18,817 bases of DNA from Candidatus Parcubacteria bacterium (GCA_023131055.1 JAGMAB010000007.1:1-18817), one strand, 5' to 3'; numbered from the stretch's first letter, positions 2,230 through 18,817 are shown. Numbers and translations are program-made. The notes: generated by a model not told the origin, from the sequence alone.

Positions 2230-3336
2230 TTATAAATTTGAAACAAAATAATTTTTAACAGCAAACTCAAATTGCTCAATAAAAAGATTTTTGAAATAAC
2301 TAATATTGTTTTGTTCATAAAATAAAATAATCGCTTTTTTGTATTCTTCTTCTTTAACACTGCGATAAGAAAGCGGACAAATATTATTAGCCATTAAAAT
2401 AGCGTTAGCAGCCAATCTGCTTGTTCGTTTATTGCCATCGTCAAACGGTTGAATATAAGCAACCATTACCATTAAAATAACGGCTTTGGCAAAAATGTTT
2501 TTTTCTTGATTAACTATTGCGCAAGTTTTTTCTAACGCTTCTCTGATTTGAAAAACATTATCTATTGGACAATATGCGGTGCCGGTAATTCCAACCGGTA
2601 ATTTTCTAAGCCCGCTACTAATATCCAAATCTTTAGTCAAAAGAAAATGTATATCTTCCAGTTTGGCAACTGTAATTTTTTTAAACGCCAAAAGATTTTT
2701 CCTGATATATTCCAAAACATTTTTATGATTCAAAATCATAATTGCTTCTTTTTTTTTGCGGCCTTTGGCTTGCTTGTTATGTTTAATCAAAAATTCTGTC
2801 TCTAAAAGAGTATAAGTATTTCCTTCAATAGCAGAAGATTTCCAACTTAATTCTATAACTAATCGCTCAAATTCGCGCTTAAAATTTGCCTTTGGTAATT
2901 TTTTAATATTTTTTTGATATTCAAAAGCAAGCTGGTTAAGCTCTTTTTCTTCATCAACAATAAAAATATTTTTAAAAATATCAACAAGTTCAAAATTAAA
3001 ACTTTTTTTACCCCTTCTTTGATCCGGCGCAATTTTGAAATAATCATTTACATCAATCGGCTTTAAAAGATTATATTGATTAGATAATTGATAGACCACG
3101 CTTCTGCCTTTACCAATTCGTTTAACAAAATTAAATTTTAACAATTGATTTAAATCTCTAATTATCGTAATCCTGGAAATTTTAGAAAATTTTTGAACCA
3201 AATCAAAAACCAGTTCGGAAACAGAGATTTTCCCTTGTTTATCAATCAAATTCAGAATTATTTCTTGTCTTTTATTTAATTGGTTAAACTTTAACTCCAT
3301 GATAATTGTATCATTTTTATGCTCTAATTGTATCAT
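2230..3336 (-). CDS. wHTH-Fic/Doc family protein with a non-canonical active-site motif QPFDDGNKRTSR. An alternative start is at 3300.
   Basis: N-terminal winged-HTH-like region (residues about 13-85). SSAIEGN matches the Fic inhibitory helix motif [ST]xxxE[GN]. The Fic core IQPFDDGNKRTSRLAANAIL corresponds to HxFx(D/E)GN(G/K)RxxR, with the His codon read as CAA (Gln). The GNKR version is Doc-like. Confidence 0.75.
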   Translation of the reverse strand: MIQLEHKNDTIIMELKFNQLNKRQEIILNLIDKQGKISVSELVFDLVQKFSKISRITIIRDLNQLLKFNFVKRIGKGRSVVYQLSNQYNLLKPIDVNDYFKIAPDQRRGKKSFNFELVDIFKNIFIVDEEKELNQLAFEYQKNIKKLPKANFKREFERLVIELSWKSSAIEGNTYTLLETEFLIKHNKQAKGRKKKEAIMILNHKNVLEYIRKNLLAFKKITVAKLEDIHFLLTKDLDISSGLRKLPVGITGTAYCPIDNVFQIREALEKTCAIVNQEKNIFAKAVILMVMVAYIQPFDDGNKRTSRLAANAILMANNICPLSYRSVKEEEYKKAIILFYEQNNISYFKNLFIEQFEFAVKNYFVSNL

Positions 3337-5617: not shown

Positions 5618-5689
5618 GCCCTCGTAGTGAAACGGATATCACGCGACGCTTCGGACGTTGAAGTCCGGGTTCGAATCCTGGCGAGGGCA
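5618..5689 (+). tRNA. tRNA-Arg (anticodon TCG). CCA is not encoded.
   Basis: GCCCTCG TA GTGA AACGGATA TCAC G CGACG CTTCGGA CGTTG AAGT CCGGG TTCGAAT CCTGG CGAGGGC A, followed by CAA. Confidence 0.85.
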
Positions 5690-5693
5690 CAAT

Positions 5694-6146
5694 ATGAATT
5701 TTCAATTACTAATGTTTAAAAAAATAGTTTTAATAATTTTATTGGCAGGTTTTGTTTTAATTCCTTTGATTTCACACGCAGCCGGATTAGTGCCTTGCGG
5801 AGAAGAAGGAAATCCTTGCCAACTGTGTGATTTTTTTGTTTTAGTTGATAATGTAATTGATTTTGTTTTGATAAAATTAGTTCCGCCATTGGCGGTTCTG
5901 ATGTTAGTAATCGGCGGAATAATGTTTGTAGGCGCGACTTTGGAATTTCTGCCGGGCGGACCAACTCTTTTAAGCCAGGCAAAAGCAATAATGACTTCAG
6001 TAGTAATCGGCTTAATCATAATTTATGGCGGCTGGATTATTATAGGATTATTTTTGAATACAATTGGTTTATCTGAATGGACTGGCGGAACTACTGGTAT
6101 TTTTTCAAACTGGAATCAAGGTTTTTTCACAATCCCTTGCGAGTAA
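5694..6146 (+). CDS. Secreted 2-TM cysteine-containing small membrane protein, candidate VirB2/TrbC-like pilin.
   Basis: MNFQLLMFKKIVLIILLAGFVLIPLISHA | AGLVPCGEEGNPCQLCDFF..., that is a signal peptide with AxA-like site. Two hydrophobic helices follow (LAVLMLVIGGIMFVGA and VVIGLIIIYGGWIIIGLFL) and a C-terminal Cys. The ORF track start at 5658 overlaps tRNA-Arg and was trimmed. Confidence 0.45.
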   Translation: MNFQLLMFKKIVLIILLAGFVLIPLISHAAGLVPCGEEGNPCQLCDFFVLVDNVIDFVLIKLVPPLAVLMLVIGGIMFVGATLEFLPGGPTLLSQAKAIMTSVVIGLIIIYGGWIIIGLFLNTIGLSEWTGGTTGIFSNWNQGFFTIPCE

Positions 6147-6151
6147 TTCCC

Positions 6152-6222
6152 GCCCCCATAACTTAATGGAAAAGTAGTTGCCTCTTAAGCAATTAATCCA
6201 GGTTCGAATCCTGGTGGGGGCA
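6152..6222 (+). tRNA. tRNA-Lys (anticodon CTT). CCA is not encoded.
   Basis: GCCCCCA TA ACTT AATGGAA AAGT A GTTGC CTCTTAA GCAAT TAAT CCAGG TTCGAAT CCTGG TGGGGGC A, followed by CAA. Confidence 0.85.
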
Positions 6223-6249
6223 CAAAGATAATTAATAATTTTTAAAACT

Positions 6250-6516: not shown

Positions 6517-7037
6517 TTATAAAGCATATTGGGCAAAGAGTGGCTGTGTTGATTGATGTTCAGAATTTATATCATTCAGCCAAAAATTTATATCAGTCCA
6601 GGGTTAATTTCCAGGAAATTTTGAAGTCTGCTGTGAGCGGGAGAAATTTAATTAGGGCTTTTGCTTATGTAGTAAGGACAAAAACCGGCGAAGAAAAGCC
6701 GTTTTTTGAAGCGCTCACAAAATTAGGAATTGAAACAAGAGTAAGAGACCTTCAGGAATTTTACGGCGGTATGAAAAAAGCTGACTGGGATGTGGGCATT
6801 ACCGTTGACGCTATCAGAATTTCTCCTGATGTTGACACTATTGTTCTAGGTTCAGGAGACGGAGATTTTCTCCAGTTGGTTGATTTTTTAAAAAACCAGG
6901 GGAAAAGAGTGGAAGTTATCGCTTTTGACAGGTCTGCGTCCCTAAAATTAAAAGAAGCGGCTGACGAATTTATTGACATAGGAAAAGAACCTAAAAAATA
7001 TTTATTAAAAAAAGAAAAAATTGTAGAAAAAAAATGA
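6513..7037 (+). CDS. NYN-domain (LabA-like, PIN-like) predicted ribonuclease.
   Basis: [15 protein letters not shown]...LIRAFAYV...[14 protein letters not shown]...[31 protein letters not shown], with the acidic residues typical of NYN/LabA. The start ATGA overlaps the rpsO stop and the stop ATGA overlaps the pnp start. Confidence 0.75.
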
Positions 7038-9133
7038 AAGAAAAAATTTACAAATTAGACATTGATGGCAAGGAACTTATTATTAAAATTACTGATTTAA
7101 CAGAACAAGCGTCCGGAAGTTGCTTAATCCAATATGGCGACACATTGGTTTTGGCAACAGCAGTAATGTCAAAACAGGAAAGAGAAGGCATAGATTTTTT
7201 TCCTTTAAGCGTTGAATATCAGGAAAGATTTTACGCCGCGGGGAAAATTCTGGGCTCCCGTTATATCAGAAGAGAAAGCCGTCCTTCTGATGAAGCGATT
7301 TTAACCGCGCGTTTGATTGACAGAACAATCAGGCCGCTTTTCCCGGAAAACCTAAAAAAAGAAATTCAAGTTGTTCTCACCTGTCTTTCATGGGACAGAG
7401 AAAACGACCCTGATATAATCTGCTTGATTGCCGCTTCTTTAAGTTTGGCAAGTTCTGACATCCCTTGGTCGGGTCCTATTGCCAGCGTAAGAGTCGGACG
7501 GCTGGATAACAAATTTATTCTCAATCCTACTTACGAGCAAAGAGAAAAAAGCGATTTTGATTTAGTAATATCAGGCATTGAAAAAAATCATGAGATTTTA
7601 ATCAATATGCTTGAAGGAGAAGGACAGGAAACAGAAGAAGACGCAGTTCTGCAGGCGGTTAAATTTTCAATGCCTTATTTAAAAAAACTTATTTCCTTTC
7701 AAAAACAGATTATTCAAGAAATAGGCAAAGAAAAAAGCTTGGTCAAAGCTCAAGAACAGGACATTGACTTGGAAAAAGACATCAAAGAATTCTTGGAACA
7801 ACGATTGGAAAAAATTGAAAACCTTGGCGCTCTTAAAGACGACTTGCTCTCTTTTGTTGCGGAAAAATATCCTGAACCAAAGAAAATAAATTACGCCAAA
7901 GATATTTTTGAAAAAGAAATAGAAAAAGCGCTCCATCAAAGAATAATTGCAAAAGAAGAAAGGCCTGATAGCAGGAAATTAGACGAAACAAGAGAAATTT
8001 CCTGCGCAACCGGCATCTTGCCAAGAACGCACGGGTCAGGGCTTTTCTGCCGCGGACTGACCAAAACTTTATCTATTCTTACGCTGGGCGCGCCGGGAGA
8101 TGTCCGTTTTTTGGAAGGAATGGAAATTGTCGGCAAGAAAAGGTTTATGCATCATTATAATTTCCCTGCTTACTGCGTCGGCGAAGTAAAGCCGTTCAGA
8201 GGTCCCGGGCGAAGAGAAATAGGGCATGGAATGCTGGCTGAAAAAGCTTTATTGCCGCTAATCCCTGATTCGGATGAATTTCCCTACACAATCAGGATTG
8301 TTTCTGAAAATTTGTCTTCCAACGGTTCCACATCTATGGCTTCTATTTCATCTTCTTGCTTGGCTCTGATGGATGCCGGGGTGCCGATAAAAACTCCTGT
8401 TGCTGGAATTGCCATTGGCTTAATACAAGATTCTTCAGGAAATTACAAAATTTTAACTGATATTCAGGGTCCGGAAGACCATTACGGCGATATGGACTTT
8501 AAAGTGGCAGGAACTGAAAAAGGCATAACCGCTATTCAAATGGATGTTAAAATTAAAGGCATTACTGAACAAATTCTAAAGCAGGCATTAGAACAAGGCA
8601 AAAAAGCAAGAAAGCAGATTTTGGAAAAAATGAAAAAAACAATAGCAAGTCCAAGGACAGAACTTTCGCCATTTGCCCCTAAAATTAAAACCTTGCAGAT
8701 TAATCCTGAAAAAATAAGAGAAGTAATCGGACCCGGCGGAAAAATAATTAACAAAATAATTGAAGATTGCGGAGTTACCATTGACATTGAGGATTCCGGC
8801 AAGATTTTTGTCGCTTCAGAATCAGAACAAGCAGTGGATAAAGCAATGGAATGGATAAAAAATATTACCAGAGAAGTGGAAATAGGAGAAATTTTCCAGG
8901 GCAAGGTGAAAAGAATTTTGGACTTTGGCGCTTTTGTTGAAATACTGCCGGGACAGGACGGCTTGGTTCATATTTCCGAATTAGCTCCGTATAGAGTGGA
9001 AAAAGTTGAAGACATAGTTAAAATAGGCGATACAGTGTCAGTAAAAGTGATTTCTGTTGACGAGCAAGGACGGATAAACCTTTCAATAAAACAAATAAAA
9101 GAACAAAATGACCATGGAAGAAAACACAAATAA
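7034..9133 (+). CDS. pnp: Polynucleotide phosphorylase.
   Basis: Two RNase PH-like domains (SNGSTSMASISSSCLALMDAGVPI), a KH domain (IREVIGPGGKIINKI) and an S1 domain (GKVKRILDFGAFVEILPGQDGLVHISEL). Length 699 aa. Confidence 0.95.
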   Translation: MKEKIYKLDIDGKELIIKITDLTEQASGSCLIQYGDTLVLATAVMSKQEREGIDFFPLSVEYQERFYAAGKILGSRYIRRESRPSDEAILTARLIDRTIRPLFPENLKKEIQVVLTCLSWDRENDPDIICLIAASLSLASSDIPWSGPIASVRVGRLDNKFILNPTYEQREKSDFDLVISGIEKNHEILINMLEGEGQETEEDAVLQAVKFSMPYLKKLISFQKQIIQEIGKEKSLVKAQEQDIDLEKDIKEFLEQRLEKIENLGALKDDLLSFVAEKYPEPKKINYAKDIFEKEIEKALHQRIIAKEERPDSRKLDETREISCATGILPRTHGSGLFCRGLTKTLSILTLGAPGDVRFLEGMEIVGKKRFMHHYNFPAYCVGEVKPFRGPGRREIGHGMLAEKALLPLIPDSDEFPYTIRIVSENLSSNGSTSMASISSSCLALMDAGVPIKTPVAGIAIGLIQDSSGNYKILTDIQGPEDHYGDMDFKVAGTEKGITAIQMDVKIKGITEQILKQALEQGKKARKQILEKMKKTIASPRTELSPFAPKIKTLQINPEKIREVIGPGGKIINKIIEDCGVTIDIEDSGKIFVASESEQAVDKAMEWIKNITREVEIGEIFQGKVKRILDFGAFVEILPGQDGLVHISELAPYRVEKVEDIVKIGDTVSVKVISVDEQGRINLSIKQIKEQNDHGRKHK

Positions 9134-10431: not shown

Positions 10432-11949
10432 ATGCCTTCTAAAGTTTTTTCAGCGGCTCTTTCGGGTTTAGAAGCCCAGCTCATTGAAGTGGAAGTAGAT
10501 GCCTCATACGGATTGAGGCATTTTGAAATTGTCGGCTTGCCTGACAAAGCGGTTCAGGAAGCAAAAGAAAGAGTTGGAGCCGCAATTGAAAGCTCTGGAT
10601 TTAAATCTCCCCATCACCAGTCAACCAGGGTATTGGTCTCTCTGGCGCCGGCTGATTTGAAAAAAGAAGGCTCTTTCTACGATTTACCAATTGCTTTGGC
10701 TTATCTTTTAGCCGCAGAAAAAATCAGATTCAATCCTTTGGATAAAATTCTTTTGGGAGAGTTAGCTTTGGACGGACGGCTAAGGCCGATAAAAGGAGTT
10801 GTTTCTTTTGCCATTGCTTGCAAGGAAAAAGGTTTTTCCGAACTAATCCTGCCAAAAGAAAACAGAACCGAAGCTTCTTTAGTAAAGGGATTGAAAGTAA
10901 TAGGCGTGGAAAATTTAGGAGAAGCAATCGCATATTTAGAAGGGAAAAAAGAAATTTCTGGGTTCAAAATAGATATAAAAGATTTTTTCCAGGCCTCTAA
11001 ATATCCTGTTGATTTGGCTTATGTCAAAGGACAGGAATCAGCTAAACGGGCTCTGGAAATCGCTGCGGCTGGCAGCCATAACATTATGATGACGGGACCG
11101 CCGGGCGCTGGCAAAAGCTTGTTAGCCAAAGCAATTCCGTCAATTCTGCCCCGGCTTTCTTTTGCGGAATCTTTGGAAGTGACGAAAATTTACAGCGTAT
11201 CCGGCTTGCTTCCCCAAAAAAAACCTTTAATCAATTTAAGGCCTTTTCGTTCGCCGCATCATACTTCCTCTGAAGTATCTTTGATTGGCGGCGGCAATCC
11301 TTTGAGAGCGGGAGAAATTACTTTATCCCATCGCGGAATTCTTTTCTTGGACGAGTTTCCTGAATTCCACCGCGATGTCTTGGAAAGTTTAAGGCAGCCT
11401 TTGGAAGAGGGAAAAATCACTTTATTGCGCGCAAAACAATGTTTAACTCTGCCTGCTCGTTTTACTTTAGTGGCAGCGGCCAATCCCTGTCCCTGCGGTT
11501 TTCATGGAGACCCTGAAAGAGAATGCACTTGCACGCCTTCCCAAATTCAAATGTACAGAAGAAAACTGTCAGGTCCTTTAATGGATCGGCTTGACCTTTT
11601 TATCCCGGTTCCGGCTTTAAAATACGAAAAATTAACCTCTGCTGACAAAGAAAATTCCAGCGCAAGCATTAAACAAAGAGTGGAAAAAGCCAGAAAAATC
11701 CAGCAAGACCGGTTTTCAGGAGATAAAACGAATTCAGAAATGGAAATCCCTGAAATAAAAAAATACTGCTCAATTGACAGTAAAACAGAAAACCTTTTAA
11801 GAGATTATGTTGATTCCGGCAAGTTATCAGCTCGCGGGTATCACCGGGTTTTGAAAACAGCCAGGACAATTGCTGATTTAGACAATTCTGAAAATATCAG
11901 ACAAAATCATTTATCCGAAGCAATTTCTTACCGCTTCCGCCAGAATTAA
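10432..11949 (+). CDS. YifB/ComM-family Mg-chelatase-like AAA+ ATPase.
   Basis: N-terminal Lon-like domain (VEVDASYGLRHFEIVGLPDKAVQEAKERV). Walker A GPPGAGKS, Walker B ILFLDEFPEF. C-terminal ComM/YifB tail. Length 505 aa. Confidence 0.9.
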   Translation: MPSKVFSAALSGLEAQLIEVEVDASYGLRHFEIVGLPDKAVQEAKERVGAAIESSGFKSPHHQSTRVLVSLAPADLKKEGSFYDLPIALAYLLAAEKIRFNPLDKILLGELALDGRLRPIKGVVSFAIACKEKGFSELILPKENRTEASLVKGLKVIGVENLGEAIAYLEGKKEISGFKIDIKDFFQASKYPVDLAYVKGQESAKRALEIAAAGSHNIMMTGPPGAGKSLLAKAIPSILPRLSFAESLEVTKIYSVSGLLPQKKPLINLRPFRSPHHTSSEVSLIGGGNPLRAGEITLSHRGILFLDEFPEFHRDVLESLRQPLEEGKITLLRAKQCLTLPARFTLVAAANPCPCGFHGDPERECTCTPSQIQMYRRKLSGPLMDRLDLFIPVPALKYEKLTSADKENSSASIKQRVEKARKIQQDRFSGDKTNSEMEIPEIKKYCSIDSKTENLLRDYVDSGKLSARGYHRVLKTARTIADLDNSENIRQNHLSEAISYRFRQN

Positions 11950-11953
11950 ATTA

Positions 11954-12961
11954 TTACTGAAAAGGATTTCTGGCTCCATTCACTCCAAAATGCACATGAC
12001 AGCCGGTAGACATACCCGCGCCGGGCGTGCCCGGCTCGCCGCCCATCAAAGCAATAACCTGTCCTTGAGAAACCTGTTGTCCCTGGCTCACCAACGCTTT
12101 TAAAATATGACCGTACATTGTCACTACTCCGTTAGGATGCAGGATTGTTATATGATTGCCCGCTCCGCCAAAAGCCCAGCGGGAAACAGAATTAGTTAAT
12201 TTTACTTTCAAAACTTTTCCTCCTGCTGCCGCGTAAATCACATCTCCGCATTTGCCGTTGCTGAAATCAATAGCGTTATACCAGTGAAGCCTTTGCGTAA
12301 TGCGGCAGGGAGCGGAAATAGGACAAATAAAATAACTATTAGCCAAAGGAACAGAAGAAGAAACAGCATATTGAACTTTTACCTTAGGCATTTTTCCTTC
12401 AGGAATAATTAAAATATCACCTATAAAAATATCCGCTTCGTTAGAAAGTTCGTTAAAAGCAATTATGTCAGAGGTTTTTCCCTCATATTTTTTAGCAAGC
12501 TCTGAAATTGTCTCGCCGGCTTTAACATGATGAATTATTCCGGAAACAGGGGACACTACTAATTTCTGGCCTATTTGAATAACAGAATTTTTATTTAAAT
12601 CATTTGCCCAAAGCAATGTTTCTAATGTGATGCCAAATTTATGCGCGATTGACCAAAGATTGTCTCCAGCTTCAATCTCATATTCAGTAATCGCTTTTTT
12701 AATGTCCTGTGGCTCATACGCTCCTACTAAAGCTCCCAAAACTTGAGGTGAAAAAATATTCGCCGGCGAACAAGCAGATATGGTATTTTTCCCAATTAAA
12801 AGAAAATCAGGGGATTCTAAAGCAAAACTTTTTGTCGTACTTAAAAACAAATCCTGATTATTATTTTTGACAGAATTTTCCTGCTCTGAATTATTAAAAA
12901 AAGATAAAGAAACCAAACCAATTAAAATAATTGCTACTATCAAAACTGCTTTTTTATACAT
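11954..12961 (-). CDS. Secreted LysM-domain M23 metallopeptidase.
   Basis: Signal/TM N-terminus and two LysM-like segments (YEIEAGDNLWSIAHKFGITLETLLWANDL and HHVKAGETISELAKKYEGKTSDIIAFNEL). M23 motifs HWYNAIDF...HPNGVVTMYGH...GCHVHFGV. Confidence 0.85.
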   Translation of the reverse strand: MYKKAVLIVAIILIGLVSLSFFNNSEQENSVKNNNQDLFLSTTKSFALESPDFLLIGKNTISACSPANIFSPQVLGALVGAYEPQDIKKAITEYEIEAGDNLWSIAHKFGITLETLLWANDLNKNSVIQIGQKLVVSPVSGIIHHVKAGETISELAKKYEGKTSDIIAFNELSNEADIFIGDILIIPEGKMPKVKVQYAVSSSVPLANSYFICPISAPCRITQRLHWYNAIDFSNGKCGDVIYAAAGGKVLKVKLTNSVSRWAFGGAGNHITILHPNGVVTMYGHILKALVSQGQQVSQGQVIALMGGEPGTPGAGMSTGCHVHFGVNGARNPFQ

Positions 12962-13941: not shown

Positions 13942-16041
13942 ATGGGGTTTTACACTTTATTAAAAAAGGGTAAAATAAAACTAATGAAAACAAACATTAA
14001 AAAACAAGTTCTCTTTTTTAGCGCTGTTTTGTTTTCAATATCTCTTGGCATAATTATTCCTCTTCACTTTAGCCATGCATTTATAGCAGAGTCCATTGGA
14101 ATGTATGTAGGTTCCTGGATTATTGCAGGCGGCTTGCAGGTTGTTTTAGCTGTTTCCAGTTTAATAGTTGGTTTGGCAGGAATGATTTTAAGCTGGGTTT
14201 TAAGCCCTTATTTTATGTCAATGCCATATACTTCCGGAGGCGTTGTTGAAATCGGCTGGCCAATTGTTAGGGACTTTATCAATATGTTCTTTGTTCTTGG
14301 TCTTGTTGTAATTGGATTGGCAACTGCTTTGCGCTTAAAAGAATACCAAGCGCAAAAGGCCTTGCCTGTTTTAATAATTATTGCTATTTTAATTAATTTT
14401 ACGCCTGTAATCTGCGGTGTGATTGTTGACGCTTCAAATATCCTAATGAATTTCTTCTTGGAAGAAATATCTGGTTTTGGAACTATGATTAATCTTTTTT
14501 CCAGCCAGGGAGCAATGCTTGCCCAAACAATTACTGCTGACAGCTTTAGCCAGCTCGCGGCTCTTCCTTTTACCATTATAGGCAAAACACTTATTATGAT
14601 TGTTTTTGCCTGGGTTACCGCGTTTATTTTCTTTATGTATTCCATGCTTTTTATAATGAGATATGTAATGATTTGGGTTTTGGTGATTGTTTCGCCAATA
14701 GCGTTCTTTTCCAGAATTTTTCCGGCAACTAAAAAAGGTGAATATGTTTTCAAAAGTATTTTGGGCTGGGATGAATGGTGGAAGCAATTTTTTGAATGGA
14801 CATTAATCGGAGTTACCGGCGCCTTTTTTCTATATTTGGGTGAACAAATAATGAATGGATTTTCAATTTCAACTGCTGGCTGGTTACAAGGAATTCCGCC
14901 AGAAGGAGGAGGATGGGTTATAGATATAATTACGGCTCCGATTATTGAATTTATGAACACCATGCTGTCCTGGGGCGTTGTTCTGGCTTTTCTGTTTATC
15001 GGCTGGATGGTGGCTATTGAAACCAAAGCGCTTGGAGCAAAACATATTACCGACACTTTCAAAAAAATGGGTAAAAAAATGGGTGTCGCAGGATTAAAAG
15101 TAGGAGCCGGAGCAACTATAAAAGCAGGAGGTCTAATAAAAGACACGGCTTTAGGATCAGGAGCAGGATTTTATGGAGGAATAAAAACAGAAAAAGGATT
15201 AGGTAAAATTAAAGGTGCGGTAATGGGAGCTCATATGGGAGGAATATCAGGCATAAAGCAAGGAGCGGCAAGATGGTATAAAGACAAAGATTTACCTAAC
15301 AATGCAACTAGAATGGATAAAATAAAAGCAGGATTTCAAACTGCCTTTGAAGATGTAAAATCTATACCTAAAGCTGGCGCGAAAGCAGCAGCAAAAGATT
15401 TGGGAGTTCCAGAATTGTTTGAAGAACCCAAAAAACCAGGAGAAAAACCAGAAATGCCAGAAATGCCAGACTTACCATCGAATTTATCAGATGAAGAACG
15501 TACAGAACGCATAGAAGATTTCAGGGAAAAGGTAAACACATATGGAAAAGAAACGGAAGAATACTCCACACAGAAAAAACCTTCTGCCGCACCCGTATCA
15601 CCAGTAGAACCTGAAAAACCTTCTACTTCGCCTGTGACTCCGCCAGAAAAAAAGAAAACAGTTCAAGCAACATTTGGTCAACCCTCAGAACCCCAAGAAA
15701 AAGCAGAAAAATGGGGAGGAATAGTTCCGCCTACAACACCATCGAAAGAAACTACACCGCCACCTAAAGAAAAACAAACAACAGGAGAATTTTACAAAGA
15801 ATTAAAAGAAGAAAGAAGAGAAAAGAAAGAAAAACGTAAAGAAAGAAAAGAGAAAAAGGAAAAAGGAAAGGAAAAAGAAGCAGGATGGGGAGCAGGAAGA
15901 GAAAAACCTTCTGGAGTTTTCAAAAAAGCACGTATAAGAAGAAAAATTGAAAAAAGCACTGAAAAAATTATAAAGGAAAATAAAAAAAGAGAAGAGAAAG
16001 AACAAAAAGAAAAAGAAGAAAAAAAGGCAGGATGGAAATAA
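13942..16041 (+). CDS. Polytopic membrane protein, VirB6/TrbL-like candidate T4SS channel component, with a long low-complexity C-terminal tail.
   Basis: Signal/TM N-terminus and at least 7 hydrophobic helices over residues about 20-360. A Gly-rich linker (GVAGLKVGAGATIKAGG) follows, then a PEK/PT-rich segment, then a K/E-rich tail (EKKEKRKERKEKKEKGKEKE). This architecture is typical of TrbL/VirB6-family proteins. The start could be the downstream Met (MKTNIKK). Confidence 0.45.
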   Translation: MGFYTLLKKGKIKLMKTNIKKQVLFFSAVLFSISLGIIIPLHFSHAFIAESIGMYVGSWIIAGGLQVVLAVSSLIVGLAGMILSWVLSPYFMSMPYTSGGVVEIGWPIVRDFINMFFVLGLVVIGLATALRLKEYQAQKALPVLIIIAILINFTPVICGVIVDASNILMNFFLEEISGFGTMINLFSSQGAMLAQTITADSFSQLAALPFTIIGKTLIMIVFAWVTAFIFFMYSMLFIMRYVMIWVLVIVSPIAFFSRIFPATKKGEYVFKSILGWDEWWKQFFEWTLIGVTGAFFLYLGEQIMNGFSISTAGWLQGIPPEGGGWVIDIITAPIIEFMNTMLSWGVVLAFLFIGWMVAIETKALGAKHITDTFKKMGKKMGVAGLKVGAGATIKAGGLIKDTALGSGAGFYGGIKTEKGLGKIKGAVMGAHMGGISGIKQGAARWYKDKDLPNNATRMDKIKAGFQTAFEDVKSIPKAGAKAAAKDLGVPELFEEPKKPGEKPEMPEMPDLPSNLSDEERTERIEDFREKVNTYGKETEEYSTQKKPSAAPVSPVEPEKPSTSPVTPPEKKKTVQATFGQPSEPQEKAEKWGGIVPPTTPSKETTPPPKEKQTTGEFYKELKEERREKKEKRKERKEKKEKGKEKEAGWGAGREKPSGVFKKARIRRKIEKSTEKIIKENKKREEKEQKEKEEKKAGWK

Positions 16042-16046
16042 AAAAT

Positions 16047-16068
16047 AAGGGTAAATTAAATTACCCTT
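16047..16068. terminator. Bidirectional terminator hairpin between convergent genes.
   Basis: AAGGGTAA attaaa TTACCCTT. It lies immediately after the VirB6-like stop (16041) and overlaps the SPFH gene stop (16067-16069). Confidence 0.5.
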
Positions 16069-17371
16069 AACCTTGATTATTTTTTTCGGTTTTTTCCTCC
16101 TTTATTCTTTTCTCACTTTTCTCGCTGATGTCGCGGTATGCCCCTCTTACGGTTTCCTTGTATACCTCTTTTCCTAATTCACTGTCTTGTGGGAAAAATA
16201 CCGCGCCTTGAGTTTTTGTAATCGTATCCAATTTTTGCAGCATTTCCCACTCCTTTCTCGCCTCTTGAAAAGCTTCTGACTCCTCAATATCTTCCCTTTC
16301 CTGAATGCCTTTTCCAATTATCTCTATCTTTCTATCTATTTTTTTACCTTCGGCTTCTCCTTCTAACCGCTTTCTTTCTACTAATTTTTCTGCAATTTCT
16401 ATCTCTCTATCTGCTTCATACACTTTTGTCCTATATTTTTGTAGTTGTTCCGGAATGTCAAAGTCTTTTAACAGCAGAGTTACTAATCTCACTCCCCATC
16501 TGCTAAAATCTCTTGTTATCCATTTTTGAATCTCTTTGCTAATATCTCCCCCTCTCAATGCAACCACATCTTCCAGCGCAAAATCTTTGAGATAAGTTTG
16601 AATAGCATCCTGAAGTTTCGCAGGTACTAAATCGTCTCTTATCTCTGTTGTTCCGCCAACCACGCTATAACATATCCTTATTGGTTTATCTGCTATTACT
16701 GTGGCTTCAGCTACCATACCTATTGTTCCTCTTTCTTTAGGAAGTTCTACTCTTTCTCCTTTAGTAAAAAGAGAGATGCGAAGTTCTTTTTTAGAAACTT
16801 TCTTGTTTTCCGGGATTTTCATTAACCAATACGGCACTAAATAGGCTCCTTCTTTTAATTCTTTGTAAAACCCATCAAGCACCTCTACCATCCACACTTC
16901 TGCTGACGGCACTTTAACCCAACTCCTTTTCAGATAGCCAAAACCGACAAGCACTATTATCAATGAAATCACCAATAAAGAAATCGTAGATGTTGTCCAT
17001 ATTCCTATTGTAATGGCTTTATATATATTTAATAAAGCCCATATCGTAACCATTACTGATAGGATAATTGGTATAATCTCTGCAATTGGCACCCATCTTT
17101 TTCTTTCTTGCGCTTTTGCTTTAATATCCTCTATGACTTTTCGTACTTCTCTATCTTCCTCTGTTTCCTCTATTCTTTCTTCTTCTTCGGGTTTGGGCGT
17201 TACCTCTATCGTTTCCTCTGCCTTTTCTTTTCTCTGTTTTTCTTTTTTCTCTACTCTCCTTTCAAGAATCTTTTGGAGAAAGCTTTTTCTTTTTACTTTC
17301 TCTTTTTTTTCTTCTACATTTTCTTCTGTCATCTTTTTTCCTCCTTTTTCAACGCACTTCCTATTTTTCAA
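16067..17371 (-). CDS. SPFH/band-7 (stomatin/prohibitin/HflK/C-like) membrane protein with a K/E-rich N-terminal extension.
   Basis: TM helix VPIAEIIPIILSVMVTIWALL. SPFH-like core (EVWMVEVLDGFYKEL...TIGMVAEATVIADKPIRI...RDDLVPAKLQDAIQTYLKDFALEDV...ITRDFSRWGVRLVTLLLKDFDIP) followed by a coiled-coil EA/KR-rich region. Strong SD AAGGAGGaaaaaagATG. Confidence 0.75.
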   Translation of the reverse strand: MKNRKCVEKGGKKMTEENVEEKKEKVKRKSFLQKILERRVEKKEKQRKEKAEETIEVTPKPEEEERIEETEEDREVRKVIEDIKAKAQERKRWVPIAEIIPIILSVMVTIWALLNIYKAITIGIWTTSTISLLVISLIIVLVGFGYLKRSWVKVPSAEVWMVEVLDGFYKELKEGAYLVPYWLMKIPENKKVSKKELRISLFTKGERVELPKERGTIGMVAEATVIADKPIRICYSVVGGTTEIRDDLVPAKLQDAIQTYLKDFALEDVVALRGGDISKEIQKWITRDFSRWGVRLVTLLLKDFDIPEQLQKYRTKVYEADREIEIAEKLVERKRLEGEAEGKKIDRKIEIIGKGIQEREDIEESEAFQEARKEWEMLQKLDTITKTQGAVFFPQDSELGKEVYKETVRGAYRDISEKSEKRIKEEKTEKNNQG

Positions 17372-17399
17372 TATAATAATTTTGGAATGTGCTGGTTAA

Positions 17400-17427
17400 A
17401 CTATATCACACAATACGAATTTGTCAA
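17400..17427 (-). promoter_or_regulatory. Promoter for the SPFH gene. On the minus strand it reads TTGACA, a 16-nt spacer, then TGtgaTATAGT.
   Basis: The reverse complement of 17422-17427 is TTGACA. The reverse complement of 17400-17405 is TATAGT with an upstream TG. It is followed by a leader of about 55 nt and an AGGAGG ribosome-binding site. Confidence 0.45.
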
Positions 17428-17434
17428 ATTTATC

Positions 17435-17464
17435 TCTGACAACATTCAACGATCGTTGAAAGTT
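17435..17464. promoter_or_regulatory. 30-bp near-perfect palindrome, operator-like, in the divergent intergenic region.
   Basis: GACAACATTCAACGATCGTTGAAAGTTGTC. Its reverse complement differs at only 2 positions. The core CAACGATCGTTG is a perfect 12-mer. Confidence 0.5.
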
Positions 17465-17514
17465 GTCATTGTATGCGCGAGGTTTATCCACAGATAGAAT
17501 GTTTTATGTCAAAA

Positions 17515-17538
17515 GTATCTTGCTACGTAGCACGATAC
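17515..17538. promoter_or_regulatory. 24-bp imperfect palindrome with a perfect 10-bp core.
   Basis: GTATC tt GCTACGTAGC ac GATAC. The GCTACGTAGC core is self-complementary and the outer GTATC/GATAC arms are complementary. Confidence 0.4.
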
Positions 17539-17582
17539 TTTCTTCCTTTTTTCTCTTTTGGATATGACATTTCAAAACAGCC

Positions 17583-17625
17583 TTGACACAAAAAGTTGTC
17601 TTTTATGATTGGTTTGTGATAAAAT
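17583..17625 (+). promoter_or_regulatory. Candidate promoter(s) for the plus-strand operon starting at 17663.
   Basis: TTGACA (17583-17588), 16 nt, TATGAT (17605-17610). A second extended -10, TGaTAAAAT, lies at 17617-17625. Confidence 0.4.
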
Positions 17626-17662
17626 TTAATAAAGGGTAAAATGAATTAAAAGCAAAATCTCT

Positions 17663-18043
17663 ATGAATAACAATTTACAAAAAAAACCAAAAAAAATTCC
17701 TGCTGATATTCTGAAAGTGTTTTTTTCGGAAGAGACAATTTCGCATATTTCAGAAATTTGTCTGAAAAATGGAATTAAAGACGGCGAACAAATTAAAGAA
17801 ATCGCCAAACAAATCGGATTGGTTTTATTGGGCAAATTATCATCAAATAATTTGCCAGAAACATTGCAGGAAAAACTGCGATTAGAAAAAAACATTGCGG
17901 AAAACATTTATTTTGAAGCAAACCGCGTTATATTCTCGCAAATTAAAAAGAAATCAGAAAAAAAATCCGCGTCTGTCCCGCTAAAAAGCGGGACTATCGC
18001 AGGCAAATCAAAAAAAGACGCTTATCTTGAAACAATAGAGTAA
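17663..18043 (+). CDS. Hypothetical soluble protein, first gene of the putative T4SS-like operon.
   Basis: 126-aa ORF with no TM segments and a K-rich C-terminus. It is 1 nt from the next gene. No motif was recognised. Confidence 0.35.
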   Translation: MNNNLQKKPKKIPADILKVFFSEETISHISEICLKNGIKDGEQIKEIAKQIGLVLLGKLSSNNLPETLQEKLRLEKNIAENIYFEANRVIFSQIKKKSEKKSASVPLKSGTIAGKSKKDAYLETIE

Positions 18044-18044
18044 A

Positions 18045-18431
18045 ATGAGGTTTACAGTTCCAAAATTTATTGACCACGAGGCGAAAATAGTCGGACCATT
18101 AACTTTCAAGCAGTTTGCTTTTATCGGCACTGCGGTATTTATTGGTTTTATTCTTTATTTTACGGTTTCTTTTTCCATTTTTATAATTTCCTGCCTTGTT
18201 TTAGGAGGCGGTTCCGCGGCTCTGGCTTTTTTGAAAATTGAAAGCAAACCCTTGCCAGCTTTTTTGGGAAATCTTTTATTATTCAGATTATCTCCAAAAA
18301 TCTATATCTGGAGAAAAACAAAAAAGCGATTAAAAATTTTAAAGAGAGAGAAATTTGAAAAAGAAAAGGATAAAGAAGATGTTTCTTTGAAAATGACCAG
18401 AGAAGGCAAATTAAAAAAATTAAACTTTTAA
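18045..18431 (+). CDS. VirB3-like small 2-TM protein (PrgI/TcpE-like).
   Basis: KIVGPLTFKQFAFIGTAVFIGFILYF followed by a second helix IFIISCLVLGGGSAALAFL and a basic tail. This pattern, and the position directly upstream of a VirB4-like gene, is typical of VirB3/PrgI-family proteins. Confidence 0.5.
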   Translation: MRFTVPKFIDHEAKIVGPLTFKQFAFIGTAVFIGFILYFTVSFSIFIISCLVLGGGSAALAFLKIESKPLPAFLGNLLLFRLSPKIYIWRKTKKRLKILKREKFEKEKDKEDVSLKMTREGKLKKLNF

Positions 18432-18446
18432 TTTAGCAAAGCGATT

Positions 18447-18817
18447 ATGGCTCAAGGTTCTACTCAACAACTTTTAGAAGTTGACCAAATCAGAGAAGGA
18501 GTTGTCCTTCTCAAAAATAAAGCGATGAGGGGAGTAATGATGGTTTCTTCCTTAAATTTTGCCTTAAAATCAGAAGAAGAACAAGACGCCATTGTTTTTC
18601 AATTTCAGAATTTCTTAAATTCTCTGGATTTTTCTTTGGAAATTATTGTCCAATCCAGACGGTTAAATATTACCGGTTATTTGGATAAATTAAAAGAATT
18701 GGAAAACAAGCAGGAAAATGAATTATTAAAAACACAAACCGCTGAATATCAAAAGTTTGTCAGAAATTTAATTGCCGGAGGTGGAATTATGTCAAAAAAC
18801 TTTTTTGTTGTCACGCC
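18447..18817 (+). CDS. N-terminus of a VirB4-like T4SS ATPase. It is partial and continues beyond the window.
   Basis: MAQGSTQQLLEVDQIREGVVLLKNKAMRGVMMVSSLNFALKSEEEQDAIVFQFQNFLNSLDFSLEIIVQSRRLNITGYL. This resembles the conserved N-terminal domain of Gram-positive-type VirB4/TraE/PrgJ-like proteins (...DG.I.LKDG.....EV..INF.LKS..EQ..I...F..FLN.L....QI.V.SR...). The frame is open to the window end. Confidence 0.5.
   Translation, partial: MAQGSTQQLLEVDQIREGVVLLKNKAMRGVMMVSSLNFALKSEEEQDAIVFQFQNFLNSLDFSLEIIVQSRRLNITGYLDKLKELENKQENELLKTQTAEYQKFVRNLIAGGGIMSKNFFVVT

Follow-up and report, generated by a model that had tools for sequence, protein, structure and literature searches.

The window analyzed here is an 18,817-nt stretch of the genome of Candidatus Parcubacteria bacterium (GCA_023131055.1 JAGMAB010000007.1:1-18817), and its right end (13942-18817) carries genes resembling those of a type IV secretion system (T4SS). 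Read rightward, these encode a 699-amino-acid (aa) VirB6-like membrane protein, an SPFH-domain membrane protein on the opposite strand, a 126-aa soluble protein, a PrgI/VirB3-like protein and, cut by the end of the window, the first part of a TrsD-like protein; a pilin gene and a LysM-M23 peptidase gene lie further upstream. We consider it highly probable that a chromosomal T4SS of the Patescibacteria clade, non-conjugative and related to the FATA class of mating-pair-formation (MPF) machinery found in monoderm bacteria (MPF-FATA), is encoded here, and that this segment is its proximal half. An initial annotation, made from the window sequence alone, had proposed a T4SS-like gene set in a genome resembling the candidate phyla radiation (CPR). 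All of its open reading frames (ORFs) were recovered at their proposed positions in an independent ORF list, and the name under which NCBI holds the source, Candidatus Parcubacteria bacterium, places it in Patescibacteria.

Organization and chromosomal setting of the T4SS cluster

The window DNA recurs in a 145-kb ENA scaffold, with identity at 10,773 of 10,773 bases of the overlap; positions on this parent contig are prefixed L001 below. The gene order on the contig is that of the VirB6-like (699 aa), SPFH (minus strand), 126-aa, PrgI/VirB3, 212-aa TrsD-like, and 593-aa VirB4 ATPase genes, followed by genes for a 156-aa membrane protein and for proteins of 593, 437, and 500 aa. On the minus strand there follow jag, yidC, yidD, rnpA, and rpmH, and then dnaA. 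The whole cluster spans ~12 kb, with dnaA ~10 kb downstream of prgI, and is flanked by housekeeping genes on both sides (rpsO, pnp, and ksgA upstream; yidC, rnpA, rpmH, and dnaA downstream). From the 126-aa gene to the last pilin-domain gene, the plus-strand genes overlap or are separated by 1-15 nt, and they therefore most likely form one operon. The cluster had been described in the initial annotation as a minimal VirB3-VirB4-VirB6 set, a view that does not survive its extension, which brings in the 156-aa membrane protein and, after it, three large secreted proteins that have pilin domains or are Cys-rich.

For comparison, 80 related loci were gathered in a scan of one genome per species, each containing a relative of the VirB6 core and many of them truncated. 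Their consensus order is LysM-M23 (minus strand), ksgA, virB6, the 126-aa gene, prgI, trsD, virB4, pilin-domain genes, jag (minus), and yidC (minus), with the SPFH gene (minus) as an optional element after virB6 and the 156-aa gene as another after virB4. Occurrence among the 80 loci is highest for ksgA (67) and for the M23 gene, which lies upstream of ksgA-virB6 in 62; prgI is found downstream of virB6 in 54, trsD occurs in 50, and virB4 in 48. Three extra loci picked through the 126-aa protein show the same order. The co-localization expected of a T4SS gene set is thus seen in dozens of related genomes of the Paceibacteria type.

This setting bears on the possibility that the genes belong to an integrated conjugative element (ICE) or plasmid, as its mating-pair-formation module, and transfer DNA to other cells. 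VirB4, TrsD, and PrgI are closest to monoderm conjugation parts (among them the CD1110 family, pGO1-type TrsD, and the Mbov_0397 ICE ATPase), and a Bacillota megaplasmid has an identical gene order. The cluster nevertheless lies between housekeeping genes, at a chromosomal position common to dozens of divergent genomes. Among precomputed Pfam annotations covering ~24 kb of the contig there is no relaxase, coupling-protein, or integrase family, in agreement with the initial annotation, which had seen neither a relaxase nor a coupling protein in the window, and GC content along the window shows no island-like shift. Relaxases have moreover been reported in only 103 Patescibacteria genomes, where they are seldom near virB4 (PMC12102498). 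We regard a conjugative module as very improbable.

PrgI, a stand-alone TrsD-like protein, and the VirB4 ATPase

The most direct family assignment within the window is that of the 128-aa PrgI/VirB3-like protein (18045-18431, plus strand), a protein with two transmembrane (TM) helices, for which hydropathy places the TM segment at ~19-65. It scores 37.1 bits against Pfam PrgI (PF12666; cut-off 27), which upholds its earlier description as a two-TM VirB3/PrgI-like protein and provides the cluster with a T4SS family match above threshold.

The ORF that follows (18447-18817, plus strand) is cut by the window end after the first 123 of its 212 codons; the full gene occupies L001 10403-11041. It had been read as the N-terminus of a VirB4-like ATPase from its LKNKA...LNFALKSEEEQDAIVFQFQNFLNSLDF stretch. 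That stretch is present, and the truncated ORF corresponds to the N-terminal part of VirB4 models in NCBIfam (VirB4_plasma, 1.3e-8). The complete 212-aa protein, however, is a separate gene product. It matches positions 2-148 of the CD1110-family VirB4 model (9.4e-6), VirB4_plasma (2.1e-9), and TrsD/TraD (3e-4) in NCBIfam and is assigned to TraC-like PF26593 in precomputed Pfam annotations.

VirB4 itself is encoded outside the window (L001 11051-12832, plus strand), starting 9 nt after the TrsD-like stop. Its 593-aa product scores 366.9 bits against NCBIfam NF045971 (CD1110-family VirB4; cut-off 325) over model positions 181-734, matches Pfam P-loop_TraG at 1.2e-28, and contains both a Walker A (GKAGSGKS) and a Walker B (ILVIDE) motif, so that the downstream continuation of the locus holds a genuine VirB4 ATPase domain. 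The closest matches to VirB4 from outside CPR are 29-34% identical. Wherever the related loci have both genes (48 of 48), TrsD and VirB4 are separate ORFs, which makes the split a feature of the lineage and not an assembly error. The ORF at the window end is thus a stand-alone TrsD-like gene, homologous to the VirB4 N-terminal domain, and not the start of the ATPase. This sets right a likely annotation pitfall: throughout the lineage, such a gene is a separate trsD and not a frameshifted or truncated virB4.

A variant of VirB4 was observed in two of the other loci (L024 12146-15960 and L045 15161-18930), where the ORF is ~1,270 aa long and has an in-frame insertion of ~650 aa right after the Walker A GKS. 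The insertion looks like an intein located in the P-loop.

The ATPase is also the starting point for a different view of the machine, as a dedicated nucleic-acid importer comparable to H. pylori ComB or archaeal Ced, which would feed a nucleotide-auxotrophic epibiont and export nothing. VirB4 has partial matches to the archaeal DNA-import ATPases CedB (7.9e-12) and CedD (6e-6), but these are confined to the common P-loop region and fall far under curated cut-offs. The cluster is preceded, at a distance of a few genes, by comM and a DksA/TraR zinc-finger gene, and a 2026 preprint describes uptake of host RNA by a cultivated epibiont of the phylum, together with tubular structures that are possibly T4SS pili. 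In the saccharibacterium S. epibionticum, by contrast, competence needs ComEC, and T4SS essentiality is independent of ComEC (PMC12857230, summarizing PMC10633639); the sequence, for its part, gives no sign of the direction of transport. We consider a machine devoted to import unlikely.

An extended VirB6-like protein

The gene at 13942-16041 (plus strand) encodes an extended VirB6-like polytopic membrane protein of 699 aa. Its start is ambiguous: NCBI begins the protein at M15 (13984), giving 685 aa, ENA and the ORF list give 699 aa, and homologues show either. By hydropathy the protein is polytopic over ~aa 1-385, and this TM core is followed by a 314-aa low-complexity tail that is G/K/A-rich at residues 386-480 and consists of 21% K, 20% E, and 11% P at residues 481-699. 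The succession of G/K/A-rich and K/E/P-rich composition is the cause of an AT-skew spike at 15-16 kb. The positive-inside rule makes a cytoplasmic location of the tail probable.

The protein matches no Pfam family at E<=1 and no NCBIfam family. The hydrophobic core is common to the 299 database homologues, and tails differ greatly in length, with total lengths from 386 to 1,168 aa. Among 38 homologues, four match Pfam TrbL/VirB6 (PF04610; best 1.1e-6) and two match TrbL_4. A profile search of the Protein Data Bank (PDB) with the full-length alignment was dominated by the low-complexity tail and uninformative; rerun with the TM core only, it returned a single match at E<=10, TrwI, the VirB6 protein of R388 (PDB 7o3v), at a marginal E=0.74. 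An AlphaFold2 model of the core (predicted local distance difference test [pLDDT] 69.6) has a polytopic helical fold that can be superposed on a solved VirB6. By predicted fold and through its homologues, then, the protein is VirB6-like, and it is not a member of Pfam TrbL. The VirB6/TrbL-like label given to it in the initial annotation is accordingly sound as regards topology, fold, and homologues, and unsupported as regards its own sequence, which fails PF04610.

Compared with the TrwI/TrbL family, the protein adds the 314-aa tail, which had been called exceptionally long and left unexplained. Its details are unusual, but it is of a known kind: a recent review (PMC12857230) notes VirB6 proteins enlarged by extensive hydrophilic domains, termed "extended VirB6".

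Two minor observations concern this protein. One homologue (P0090; JGI, 850 aa, 169-kb contig) is annotated as a fusion of a KsgA methyltransferase with a VirB6-like protein, probably a gene-calling artefact that reflects the conserved adjacency of ksgA and virB6. The window also contains a second 699-aa ORF, that of polynucleotide phosphorylase (7034-9133). We considered a duplication and rejected it: the two proteins are unrelated and their equal length is a coincidence.

Pilins, Cys-rich secreted proteins, and a LysM-M23 peptidase

The gene at 5694-6146 (plus strand) encodes a VirB2-like T4SS pilin of 150 aa with a signal peptide, two TM helices, and four invariant Cys residues (C35, C42, C45, and C149). 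It sits between tRNA-Arg(tcg) (5618-5690) and tRNA-Lys(ctt) (6152-6223), with gaps of 3-5 nt, and these flanking tRNAs therefore fix the ATG at 5694 as its start; a TTG-extended 162-aa ORF from 5658 was discarded, as it overlaps tRNA-Arg. In the ENA gene call, the pilin is replaced by an antisense ORF (5702-6019). The window protein and its 18 aligned relatives all match Pfam T4SS_pilin at E<=0.01 (best 9e-12), and seven of these 19 also match TrbC/VirB2, which substantiates the VirB2/TrbC pilin architecture attributed to this small gene earlier. The gene is kept in 24 of the 80 related loci, upstream of VirB6 in most of them.

Pilin domains recur downstream of VirB4, in plus-strand genes outside the window. 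Within L001 13316-17909 are encoded a 593-aa secreted protein with 24 Cys and an N-terminal pilin-like domain, a 437-aa secreted protein with 39 Cys and, at L001 16407-17909, a 500-aa protein whose N-terminus matches T4SS_pilin at 33.5 bits (cut-off 26.6) and whose C-terminus is weakly beta/gamma-crystallin-like. These large secreted proteins may be pilus-tip or adhesin subunits.

The minus-strand gene at 11954-12961 encodes a peptidase with two LysM domains (Pfam LysM, 1.5e-23) and a Peptidase_M23 domain (3.6e-18). VirB1-like proteins with M23/LysM domains have been described near virB4 in Paceibacteria (PMC12102498), and in a Bacillota relative of the locus, from Pontibacillus, an M23 peptidase gene comes right after VirB4. 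We regard the LysM-M23 peptidase as a candidate wall-remodeling partner, analogous to VirB1; it is a conserved neighbor whose status as a component is unproven.

A widespread 126-aa protein coupled to prgI

The 126-aa soluble protein (17663-18043, plus strand) belongs to no Pfam or NCBIfam family, and the stop codon of its gene is 1 nt from the prgI start, so that its earlier description as the unknown first gene of the prgI operon stands. The predicted model has a confident five-helix domain (pLDDT ~90 over aa 14-102), followed by a disordered linker and a C-terminal motif. A match of the family to Fe_dep_repr_C, seen in five of 38 members with a best value of ~1e-3, was judged to be noise, and this identity was rejected.

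In related loci, 39 of 45 ORFs directly upstream of prgI form one family with this protein. The C-terminal motif of the family is D-x-Y-R/L-E-x-I-E, also D-x-Y-R-E-P-I-E, and reads DAYLETIE in the window protein. Across all sequences searched, the motif is present in 57 ORF tails, 43 of them upstream of prgI and two belonging to the query gene; the remaining 12 ORFs are mostly located just after or before virB6, some of them where the SPFH gene separates the gene from prgI. Altogether, the 126-aa gene is beside prgI or virB6 in ~45 of 54 loci. When loci were instead selected through the 126-aa protein, its gene preceded prgI, trsD, and virB4, beside yidC, rnpA, and dnaA, in three of three.

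This Patescibacteria family is large: an exhaustive profile search retrieves 7,027 cluster representatives at E<=1e-3, a number that falls to 3,133 when the limit is set at E<=1e-10. Almost all of the 150 matches listed are ~125-195 aa long; for the 120 homologues listed, no precomputed Pfam domain and no informative name is given. We conclude that the 126-aa protein is very probably T4SS-associated; a role as adaptor, chaperone, or substrate is conjecture.

An SPFH gene within the cluster

Between the VirB6-like and 126-aa genes, where the initial annotation had placed it, lies a minus-strand gene for a stomatin/QmcA-like SPFH membrane protein (16067-17371), which scores 35.8 bits against Pfam Band_7 (cut-off 23.6). 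The protein is 434 aa long from a TTG at 17371 or 421 aa from an ATG at 17332, as in the ENA annotation, and consists of a K/E-rich N-terminus, a hydrophobic anchor at ~aa 92-152, the SPFH domain, and a charged C-terminal region. A profile of the family matches QmcA (5.5e-26), stomatin (1.8e-17), and HflK (7.6e-14) in PDB. The protein resembles these in its Band_7 domain and N-terminal anchor, and they form membrane-attached rings or cages; it differs from them in its long K/E-rich N- and C-terminal extensions, in having no NfeD or FtsH partner gene adjacent to it, and in its location inside a T4SS cluster.

A tblastn search with the window protein found SPFH genes in three of the 80 related loci, a strong undercount, whereas a hidden Markov model built from Pfam-verified members found them in 25. 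In many loci the same slot is occupied by a minus-strand ORF of 285-473 aa; ten that were sampled all match Band_7, eight of them above threshold. The gene is present in about 40% (21 of 54) of the loci that have both virB6 and prgI and in two of the three loci selected through the 126-aa protein.

Given this variable occurrence, the SPFH gene, and possibly the 126-aa and M23 genes with it, could be unrelated housekeeping genes that share an origin-proximal neighborhood. We take this to be a serious possibility, though short of probable. It accords with the equal synteny of ksgA, which has no T4SS role, with the lack of SPFH in ~60% of otherwise complete loci, and with the gene's own divergent promoter and its low sequence identity between loci (14-23%). 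Set against this, all 25 SPFH genes are directly downstream of virB6 and on the minus strand, always in the same slot and orientation, and none is found elsewhere within +-10 kb. For the 126-aa gene, its 1-nt spacing from prgI, its position beside prgI or virB6, and its recovery in the cluster in every locus selected through it all speak against mere proximity, as does the fact that an SPFH insertion, on whichever side it occurs, leaves the gene within the cluster.

The SPFH gene is monocistronic, lying between a convergent terminator-like site and a divergent promoter-like site. The former is a GC-containing hairpin with flanking T-runs, an inverted repeat at 16046-16069 between the convergent virB6-like and SPFH genes, and is likely a terminator, being terminator-like on the minus strand. 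The latter belongs to the divergent intergenic region (17372-17662), which is 291 bp long, or 330 bp with the ATG at 17332 taken as the SPFH start. A minus-strand promoter-like site facing SPFH (TTGACA-16-TATAGT, 17427-17400) matches the sigma-70 consensus at 11 of 12 positions, and weaker plus-strand sites face the 126-aa gene (17596-17625 and 17614-17642). The region contains five promoter-like sites against 5.7 in shuffled sequences, a number not above chance, and only the 11/12 match stands out. Two near-perfect ~30-bp palindromes are also present (17437-17468 and 17512-17541); a T-rich run comes after the second, making it terminator-like on the plus strand, with no plus-strand gene upstream of it. 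Neither palindrome is kept in L005, the nearest relative without SPFH, the region matches no Rfam family, and its RNA folding z-score of -2.4 is modest; we make no claim of a regulatory element here. The long divergent region noted in the initial annotation is itself real.

In H. pylori and in A. tumefaciens, SPFH proteins are reported to be functionally connected with T4SSs (PMC5460342, PMC8656257), and we found no published report of an SPFH gene inside any T4SS cluster. SPFH, Band_7, and stomatin are unmentioned in the available text of PMC12102498 and PMC10633639 and in the available supplementary text of the 2025 paper, and neither the SPFH gene nor the 126-aa gene is named in the text of PMC12102498 or PMC10633639. 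Both the 126-aa family and the in-cluster SPFH gene thus seem to be undescribed for the Patescibacteria T4SS.

Relationship to described T4SSs

In its core, the locus is an ordinary member of the already described Patescibacteria T4SS, and its novelty is low. The VirB4 proteins of that system form a Patescibacteria clade related to MPF-FATA, and TrsD is its most abundant associated component (Quinonero-Coronel et al. 2025, PMC12102498). In the same study, PrgI/VirB3, VirB6, and arrays of VirB2-like pilins were present and relaxases nearly absent, and in Paceibacteria the cluster was located near dnaA, rnpA, rpmH, and ksgA. The window locus agrees with this description in its stand-alone TrsD beside VirB4, its PrgI/VirB3, VirB6, and VirB2-like pilin proteins, its origin-proximal chromosomal site by the same four genes, and the lack of a nearby relaxase or coupling protein. 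There is no essential difference; extra here are the SPFH gene and the conserved 126-aa gene, and the pilin domain is also fused to large Cys-rich ectodomains (in the 593- and 500-aa proteins). A T4SS-like gene set is therefore present as initially proposed, but its novelty had been overstated, the system having been described in PMC10633639 (2023), PMC12102498 (2025), and PMC12857230 (2025).

With the pGO1/pSK41 subclass (TrsC-TrsD-TrsE) of monoderm MPF-FATA systems, the locus has in common the core order VirB3-like, TrsD, VirB4, and its VirB4 passes the CD1110-family model. It departs from them in lacking matches to relaxase and coupling protein (within the Pfam-annotated ~24 kb), to VirB8-like proteins, and to SLT/CHAP VirB1-type proteins; in having VirB2-like pilins, which Gram-positive systems normally lack; and in being chromosomal and vertically conserved rather than mobile.

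The closest parallel in gene order is on the megaplasmid of Pontibacillus sp. ALD_SL1 (NZ_CP062975.1 351801-361354; L085), where genes for a pilin-like protein, a 779-aa membrane protein, PrgI-like and TrsD-like proteins, a split VirB4, and an M23 peptidase are arranged as in the CPR locus. Identity to the Pontibacillus counterparts is 30% for PrgI (E=2e-9) and 33% for the TrsD-like protein (E=1e-32), and 30-33% across PrgI, TrsD, and VirB4. This arrangement is consistent with the proposed monoderm ancestry.

Several points weigh against our assignment of the segment to a non-conjugative Patescibacteria T4SS. The window pilin is itself under the Pfam T4SS_pilin cut-off (18.3 versus 26.6 bits), and the scores of the TrsD-like protein are all under curated cut-offs. 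No VirB8-like (PrgL/TraM) or VirB1-type SLT/CHAP protein is matched by Pfam or NCBIfam among the cluster proteins, a result of sequence profiles only. The relaxase and coupling-protein negative pertains to ~24 kb of the 145-kb contig and to precomputed Pfam annotations. The housekeeping gene ksgA is as syntenic (67 of 80 loci) as any of the genes in question, so that position alone is no proof of membership for SPFH, M23, or the 126-aa gene. In the available text of PMC8656257, localization of the Agrobacterium T4SS to detergent-resistant membranes is independent of SPFH proteins. Finally, function in this lineage is an extrapolation from Saccharimonadia.

Proposed working of the machine

The source of that extrapolation is S. 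epibionticum, in which a homologous T4SS cluster and pilins were essential for epibiotic growth in a transposon sequencing screen (Wang et al. 2023, PMC10633639); there, too, the T4SS has no recognizable coupling protein or relaxase (PMC10633639). From general knowledge of T4SSs, the VirB6-like protein would constitute the membrane translocon, PrgI/VirB3 would anchor the VirB4 hexamer, and TrsD would supply in trans the N-terminal domain that VirB4 is missing. VirB4 would then power the extraction of the disulfide-bonded VirB2-like pilins and their polymerization into a filament or conduit at the cell surface, with the large Cys-rich pilin-domain proteins encoded downstream as possible tip or adhesin subunits, and the LysM-M23 peptidase might open the wall locally. 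We speculate that, as in Saccharibacteria, epibiotic growth requires the machine, which would serve for contact-dependent exchange with a host cell. Either protein export or nucleic-acid transfer could be its task; plasmid conjugation would not be.

For the accessory proteins, we propose that the 126-aa cytoplasmic helical protein is probably a T4SS-associated subunit or adaptor and that the divergently transcribed SPFH protein may act as a scaffold or gate of the membrane complex. A more specific scheme, which we put forward only tentatively, is that the 126-aa protein is a core cytoplasmic T4SS adaptor that docks through its C-terminal peptide onto TrsD/VirB4 or the VirB6 tail and partly replaces the coupling protein, with SPFH as a scaffolding or gating cage of that complex, specific to the lineage.

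The T4SS of Patescibacteria is the only one reported to be essential for the growth of its own carrier. To the core picture of the system the window locus adds nothing, but the comparison of ~80 loci flags two accessory candidates that are annotated as "hypothetical": a very widespread prgI-coupled protein of 130-160 aa with a conserved C-terminal peptide and a recurrent in-cluster SPFH gene. If either is a real subunit, it would offer a handle on how substrates are recruited without a coupling protein, via a short peptide motif, or could show how the machine is organized in a very small cell membrane, via a cage-forming scaffold.

Other features of the window

A few genes before the T4SS cluster, the segment 10033-11949 contains a DksA/TraR-type zinc-finger gene and a comM-like gene for a Mg-chelatase/MCM-type ATPase, in the same order on the parent contig. 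At the left of the window, a minus-strand gene (2230-3336) encodes a protein with HTH_DeoR and Fic domains (Pfam Fic, 1.1e-13). Its Fic motif reads QPFDDGNKRTSR, and, read by eye, the position of the usual catalytic His appears to be Gln.

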